Assembly (NCBI RefSeq): GCF_003334405.1 | Contig: NZ_QOWM01000068.1 | Strand: one strand, 5' to 3' | From: Escherichia coli | GTDB lineage: Bacteria; Pseudomonadota; Gammaproteobacteria; Enterobacterales; Enterobacteriaceae | Length of the DNA: 365 bases | Part shown: piece by piece, positions 1 through 365 of the stretch | How the letters are laid out: each line of letters begins with the position of its first letter | Numbering within the stretch: the stretch's first letter is position 1 | Notes under the pieces: generated by a model | The model's database searches: none | What the model was told of the DNA's origin: nothing | Seen by the model: the letters and a program-made list of their open reading frames with translations, nothing else | Translations under genes and position numbers: made by a program

Positions 1-365
1 GCGCTGTTGGTCGCCAGGTAAAGATGCGGGCTTAACCGGATATCCGGCGGCAGCGCCCCCCACAGCCGCGCCAGCGTATGGCCGTCCGGCTGTGCTGCCT
101 TACCACCGCGCACCAGCCACATTGACTCACTGCGGCTGTACACCGCCTCCCCCGGCAGCAGCGGCTCAAAGTGAATGCTCCGCCCGCCGTTGTCGTTGAG
201 TATCAGTCCGTCATCACGTAGCTGTAAGCGGATATCAGAAGGCGCTTTCCAGCCGGGGCCGAAAACGCCCACCGGTGCAGGCGTCTTCGTCCGGTAGCTG
301 CTGTAGGTGCGGGAGAGAATGAACGGCAGCGGGCCGGGCAGCGCAAGGTCCGTCTCGCCGGGCAG
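1..365 (-). CDS. rhs: Internal fragment of an Rhs-family core protein (YD-repeat polymorphic toxin), N-terminal conserved region; partial at both ends
   Basis: Seen in sequence: the reverse-complement frame starting at + position 365 is open for 121 codons with no stop, and the trailing partial codon GC fits the Ala that I recall following ...LATNS in Rhs proteins. All other frames contain stops (for example minus frame 2 hits TGA after about 50 codons, minus frame 3 hits TGA after about 43 codons, + frame 3 stops at 33-35). Recall, not a search: the translation matches the conserved N-terminal region of E. coli Rhs core proteins (RhsA/B/C type), beginning roughly 55-60 residues into the protein, after the PAAR-like motif. 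High G+C (about 66%) also fits the known GC-rich Rhs core. Paralog is not assignable, so the symbol is given at family level only. Confidence 0.85.
   Translation of the reverse strand, partial: MPGETDLALPGPLPFILSRTYSSYRTKTPAPVGVFGPGWKAPSDIRLQLRDDGLILNDNGGRSIHFEPLLPGEAVYSRSESMWLVRGGKAAQPDGHTLARLWGALPPDIRLSPHLYLATNS

Follow-up and report, generated by a model that had tools for sequence, protein, structure and literature searches.

A 365-nucleotide segment of the Escherichia coli rhsD/rhsE-subfamily Rhs core occurs identically at two chromosomal loci and ahead of unrelated toxin tips

Introduction

The Rhs genes were among the first repeated-gene families to be described in Escherichia coli. 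They are classically divided into an rhsABCF and an rhsDE subfamily (PMC2935791), and the pattern of identities that we find in K-12 agrees with this division. The rhs architecture seen in K-12 is of an already known type (PMC2935791, PMC3150448), including the contrast between a G+C-rich core and an A+T-rich tip (PMC2935791). For other Rhs-CT proteins of E. coli there are reports of type VI secretion system (T6SS)-dependent secretion, and of toxicity that is neutralised by immunity (PMC6730261).

A structural reference is provided by Tse5, a T6SS Rhs pore-forming effector of Pseudomonas aeruginosa. In its 2.45-Å structure, residues 1-47 constitute a small PAAR-like fragment that is cleaved off between K47 and P48, while residues 48-124 form the N-terminal plug, which is equated with the DUF6531 domain; the plug caps the YD-repeat barrel, and the N-terminal fragment is anchored via Q114, R116, R117, I118, G119, F120 and P121 (PMC10684867). 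The plug fold is common to the long-N-terminus T6SS Rhs effectors (PMC10684867).

Here we compare with these systems a stretch of E. coli DNA of 365 nucleotides, which as a whole is referred to as the window. It is almost certainly an internal piece of a chromosomal rhsD/rhsE-subfamily Rhs polymorphic-toxin gene, lying on the minus strand and encoding residues 58-178. As a feature it is already known, and the window itself carries no novel content. What varies between the genes that share it lies outside.

Results

What does the window encode? Its 365 nucleotides and the 121 residues of its translation are identical throughout to rhsD of K-12 MG1655 (365/365 and 121/121). Within this genome, it is found in rhsD only; the region of the 5'-truncated rhsE pseudogene is without it. 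The window and its K-12 counterpart can be described as follows, L001 denoting the K-12 context.

Window 3 to 365, minus strand: internal piece of an Rhs gene of the rhsD/E subfamily, in K-12 rhsD (1426 codons) codons 58-178 (identity, RHS_core match, substitution pattern)
Window 1 to 2, minus strand: first two bases of codon 179 (reading frame)
Window 156 to 365, minus strand: most of the predicted N-terminal plug (DUF6531), RhsD residues 58-127 (Pfam match, Tse5 alignment)
Window 3 to 155, minus strand: RhsD residues 128-178, between the plug and the recognisable YD repeats (alignment to Tse5 125-164, RHS_core match)
L001 6256-10536, minus strand: rhsD of K-12 MG1655 (b0497, WP_000014739.1, 1426 aa)
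L001 10001-10365, minus strand: counterpart of the window in K-12 (100% identity)
L001 6259-6762, minus strand: tip of K-12 RhsD, 168 aa, DUF4329 (profile match)

An earlier note, made from the sequence alone, had read the window as about 121 residues near the N-terminus of an Rhs core on the minus strand, lying wholly within the conserved part, and this reading holds. The NCBIfam profile NF041261 (RHS_core) matches the whole translation, residues 1-121, at profile positions 58-178 of 1261 with E=2.1e-75; its whole-protein cut-off of 2000 bits is out of reach for a fragment of 121 residues and is exceeded by the complete K-12 RhsD (2787.7 bits). Pfam DUF6531 (PF20148) matches window residues 4-66 (E=8e-15), and the Rhs shell of Tse5 (chain 8cp6_B) aligns to the translation over 111 residues (E=3.3e-12). 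Nothing that contradicts the identification as Rhs was found.

The reading frame by itself is a less telling argument. Minus-strand frame 0 is open through all 121 codons, from position 365 down to 3, and the other five frames contain 2-6 stops each; yet at the window's G+C content of 65.8% an open frame is weak evidence, because 1241 of 5000 composition-matched shuffles (25%) also retain at least one. For this reason, the argument for coding is built on homology and on how the substitutions are distributed. Relative to rhsC, 47 of the window's 85 nucleotide differences fall on third codon positions of minus-strand frame 0, and 30 of the 58 changed codons are synonymous in this frame, compared with only 8 of 63-64 in two shifted control frames. 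Coding constraint is specific to minus-strand frame 0. A frame that is open by chance in GC-rich non-coding DNA, or a small ORF or RNA on the plus strand, could appeal to the frequency of open frames in the shuffles, to plus-strand ORFs of 35 and 40 residues and to a sub-threshold match to the Rfam family isrB. Such an explanation is barely conceivable, however, and is effectively refuted by the profile matches, with E-values of the order of 1e-75 and 1e-15, and by the frame-specific synonymous pattern. The isrB match, the sole one in a permissive E-value scan of both strands, stays at chance level (17.2 bits, gathering score 35, E=0.85), and the plus-strand and other-frame ORFs, of 35-47 residues, are without homology support and run antisense to, or out of frame with, the constrained frame.

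With respect to subfamily, the window shares just ~78% nucleotide identity with rhsA, rhsB and rhsC, and hence clearly belongs to the D/E subfamily; RhsA, RhsB and RhsC have the same architecture, with the corresponding segment in the same position, and 93 of the 121 residues are identical in RhsC. RhsD shows no difference inside the window, with the same frame and the same residue range. Since the same 365 nucleotides also occur in genes other than rhsD at an rhsE-type locus, as described below, this identity does not prove rhsD to be the source gene. What we show is the window's identity, its frame and the domains assigned to it, along with how the genes with this exact sequence are built. 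In terms of nomenclature, the window is 'core' in Hill's usage, and part of the clade-specific N-terminal domain in the four-domain scheme of Jackson et al. 2009 (PMC2935791).

How does the encoded segment relate to the structure of Tse5? DUF6531 covers residues 46-123 of RhsD (E=6e-18), which places the start of the plug domain some 10-12 codons beyond position 365. Chain 8cp6_B comprises 1121 residues that correspond to Tse5 48-1168, and residues 1-111 of the window align to Tse5 58-164, the plug part to chain index 11-77, that is Tse5 58-124. L58 of RhsD, the first residue of the window, lies opposite L58 of Tse5, and residue 127 opposite A124; reading the alignment by eye, R116, I118 and F120 of Tse5 coincide with R119, I121 and F123 of RhsD. 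[quoted passage not shown] YD repeats are absent from the window; in RhsD, Pfam RHS_repeat matches become significant (E<=0.001) from residue 365, and weaker ones start at residues 209 and 320.

Tse5 and RhsD have further features in common. Both have an N-terminus of ~47-57 residues that is followed directly by the DUF6531 plug, their residue numbering is in register, with P48 present in both, and both carry a DPxG...DPxG motif ahead of the tip. A homologous cleavage site in RhsD, if used, would lie 10 codons beyond position 365, outside the window. The two proteins differ in their low overall identity and their unrelated toxin tips, and N-terminal cleavage, VgrG binding and secretion have been demonstrated for Tse5, not for RhsD. 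Of the PAAR-like N-terminus followed by a shell that the earlier note had expected, the YD-repeat shell is borne out in RhsD, while the PAAR assignment is marginal: residues 2-29, a single repeat of ~28 residues, resemble the last PAAR repeat only (Pfam PAAR_motif E=0.28; PDB chains 9rce_c E=0.03 and 4jiv_D E=0.045). The plug region is also weakly alike in P. protegens RhsA (7q97), Photorhabdus Rhs1 and the Salmonella and Advenella Rhs cores (8qja-d), with E-values of 0.036-0.5. Ahead of the plug, these proteins carry 25-45 kDa of N-terminal sequence that includes transmembrane or clade domains, compared with the ~47 residues of the E. coli protein.

In all six contexts examined that have an rhsD/E-type window, the start codon is an ATG 171 bp beyond position 365, within the 150-200 bp that had been anticipated. 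At the other end, the tip and the immunity gene had been placed about 3.5-4 kb beyond position 1, following a boundary motif PxxxxDPxGL, and in K-12 both the motif and the distances are as foreseen. The motif takes the form PLQQIDPMGL at residues 1249-1258 of RhsD, ending 3.24 kb beyond position 1; the stop codon of rhsD follows at 3.74 kb and ybbC at 3.78-4.15 kb. G+C content falls from 63.3% in the core to 36.5% in the tip and 30.6% in ybbC. K-12 RhsD also matches the YD_repeat_2x and Rhs_assc_core profiles and at least 10 Pfam RHS_repeat units, and the genes with an identical window have at least 8 Pfam RHS_repeat matches at E<1e-3, with TIGR01643 matching in 7 stretches. YbbC is a protein of the Imm-NTF2-2 immunity family (E=7e-26). 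Thereafter comes an orphan tip, with a DPxGL motif and an Rhs_assc_core match of its own. A search of RhsD, its tip, YbbC and the orphan tip with the PADLOC defence models gave no matches.

Two side observations concern this region. The DUF4329 tip of K-12 RhsD contains 'YHTHGADSHGDYVDEFFSSSD', a pattern which we take to resemble the HxH...SxxD motif of JAB/MPN metallopeptidases. Past the orphan tip, at L001 4667-5157 on the minus strand, lie ORFs of 86 and 57 residues that match positions 1-85 and 108-163, respectively, of the NCBIfam profile NF011298 (163 residues); they look like a single gene that was broken in two and that may be the immunity gene of the orphan tip.

Upstream of rhsD, the neighbouring gene is ybbP, separated by an AT-rich spacer of 431 bp in which a promoter scan gave no enrichment over shuffled sequences. 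At the K-12 rhsD locus no vgrG is adjacent, and no T6SS gene was seen within 10 kb.

How widespread is the window? By megablast it is matched in 3761 of 5426 complete E. coli genomes, at 10473 places with a median of 3 per genome, and 1975 E. coli records have a best place that is at least 99% identical. Almost all places are chromosomal (10466 of 10473), leaving 7 on plasmids, and collections of plasmids and phages yield a handful of matches that are negligible or artefactual. It is accordingly very improbable that the window derives from a mobile element, as plasmid or phage cargo, and not from a chromosomal rhs locus. In favour of such an origin one could cite the 7 plasmid places and two records from the collections. 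One, of 19 kb, bears the label of a Klebsiella oxytoca plasmid, the other, of 1.6 kb, that of a phage. Against it stand the chromosomal majority, the conserved housekeeping genes that flank both loci at which we have seen the window, and the length of several 'plasmid' records, 1 to 4.8 Mb, which we take to be mislabelled chromosomes. The rhsD match in the K. oxytoca record (NZ_CP069916.1, 3493-3857), 100% identical to the window, gives the impression of a misassembly or of contaminating E. coli chromosome rather than of a true plasmid gene. The phage-labelled record (OR844800.1, 1611 bp, Escherichia phage ECO111 5-P) matches at 606-967 with 77.7% identity, the level of rhsA/B/C; it probably represents a piece of a host rhs gene that was submitted as phage sequence.

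The two chromosomal loci that carry the identical 365 nucleotides are ybbP-rhsD, without vgrG, and an rhsE-type locus with the order yncH-vgrG-rhs. In the strains UK_Dog_Liverpool, E2855 and 504838, the rhs gene that includes the identical window is situated at the yncH...pptA locus, where K-12 has its rhsE remnant; the copy that O157:H7 has at the rhsE-type locus is 95.9% identical. The vgrG gene ends 67 bp upstream of the rhs gene, and its product matches TIGR03361 with E=3e-189. The suggestion to look for vgrG or hcp beyond position 365 was thus rewarded for vgrG at the rhsE-type locus, and neither for vgrG at rhsD nor for hcp: within 9 kb of the vgrG-rhs island we saw no hcp or other T6SS genes, and the 820-bp gap upstream of vgrG holds just short unsupported ORFs, none of them hcp-like.

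In an ungapped comparison of the two loci, homology starts at the ATG, upstream of which identity is at the random level of ~0.23. Within the core (L001 6256-10536 against 5316-9536 of L002 and L003, two vgrG-linked contexts of the rhsE-type locus with intact genes) it is 100% in the first 300 nucleotides and declines steadily to 91-94% near the 3' end, before collapsing at the tip boundary. Together with the 95.9% identity of the O157:H7 copy, this gradient suggests that the loci have exchanged sequence at the 5' end, or that new tips were imported jointly with 3' core sequence.

The three intact genes with an identical window, from K-12, L002 and L003, all have DPxGL motifs at residues 1232 and 1254 and end in three unrelated tips of 168, 148 and 144 residues. 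The variable content thus lies off-window, as expected: the identical 365 nucleotides precede at least three unrelated tips. The two that are not from K-12 are:

L002 5319-5762, minus strand: alternative Rhs tip, 148 aa, following an identical window
L003 5331-5762, minus strand: alternative Rhs tip, 144 aa, following an identical window

The profile search of tips and downstream ORFs, which the earlier note had proposed, led to named families in K-12, where the tip is DUF4329 and YbbC is Imm-NTF2-2; for the L002 and L003 tips and their downstream ORFs it returned nothing significant in Pfam or NCBIfam.

Besides the intact genes there are decayed copies with an identical window. In strain 504838, at the vgrG-linked locus (L004 5446-9536), the rhs gene is frameshifted and has an internal deletion; it falls out of register with K-12 rhsD around CDS nucleotide 1800-2100, is ~120 nt shorter than its intact counterparts, and is followed by an ORF annotated as 'RHS element protein dsORF-e4'. 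In strain 11899A_LBHALD (L005 8822-9536), the window belongs to a 606-nt pseudogene with no tip after it. This copy diverges from rhsD at CDS nucleotide ~590-591, ~54 bp beyond position 1, and directly adjoins a diguanylate cyclase pseudogene that lacks its N-terminal part. Beside the latter are alkA/yegD, which in K-12 are far from rhsD; the arrangement looks like the outcome of a large rearrangement of the chromosome, one breakpoint of which fell within the 5' region of rhs.

These two cases are what could be held in support of the window itself deriving from a truncated or frameshifted remnant, with no functional pair of tip and immunity gene downstream. We consider this improbable, as the window has no defect and such remnants look like a small minority: among the best 30 records at 100% identity, the annotation is that of an intact rhsD or RHS element core protein in 29, the remaining one being the frameshifted pseudogene of L004. 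Nevertheless, because L005 is truncated and L004 frameshifted, off-window cargo and an intact toxin gene are likely, not guaranteed.

Discussion

What can be said about the role of the segment encoded here? By analogy with its relatives, the plug would close one end of a cocoon of YD repeats around the C-terminal toxin, and would hold the short N-terminal fragment to the shell. In keeping with the established model of polymorphic toxins, the DPxGL aspartyl-protease motif, located ~3.2 kb farther along, would precede the tip and set it free. The product of a cognate immunity gene, located after the tip, would guard the producer, and delivery could proceed via the type VI secretion spike where vgrG is present. 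Of this scheme the architecture is what we observe directly, whereas cleavage and secretion, like the structural role of the plug, are extrapolated from relatives. For RhsD itself, secretion is not established here, since its locus is without an adjacent vgrG.

Given that the identical window occurs at two loci, with at least three unrelated tips and in remnants, neither locus nor cargo nor intactness can be read from it. A read or short contig that covers the window alone therefore reveals neither its locus nor the type of toxin nor the context of secretion. Tip, immunity gene and linkage to vgrG are to be sought in the flanking sequence, as the earlier note had said; the sole path to novelty leads through the off-window tip. 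In the source genome, the window could stand at the head of an rhs gene that is linked to vgrG and ends, off-window, in a toxin domain of no described family, a possibility that we raise tentatively and consider less probable than its opposite. If it were true, an uncharacterised pair of toxin and immunity would reside at the locus rather than in the window. Among the tips that we have seen behind an identical window, that of L003 is glycine-rich with GxxxG-like runs, and from its composition it might be a membrane-active toxin.
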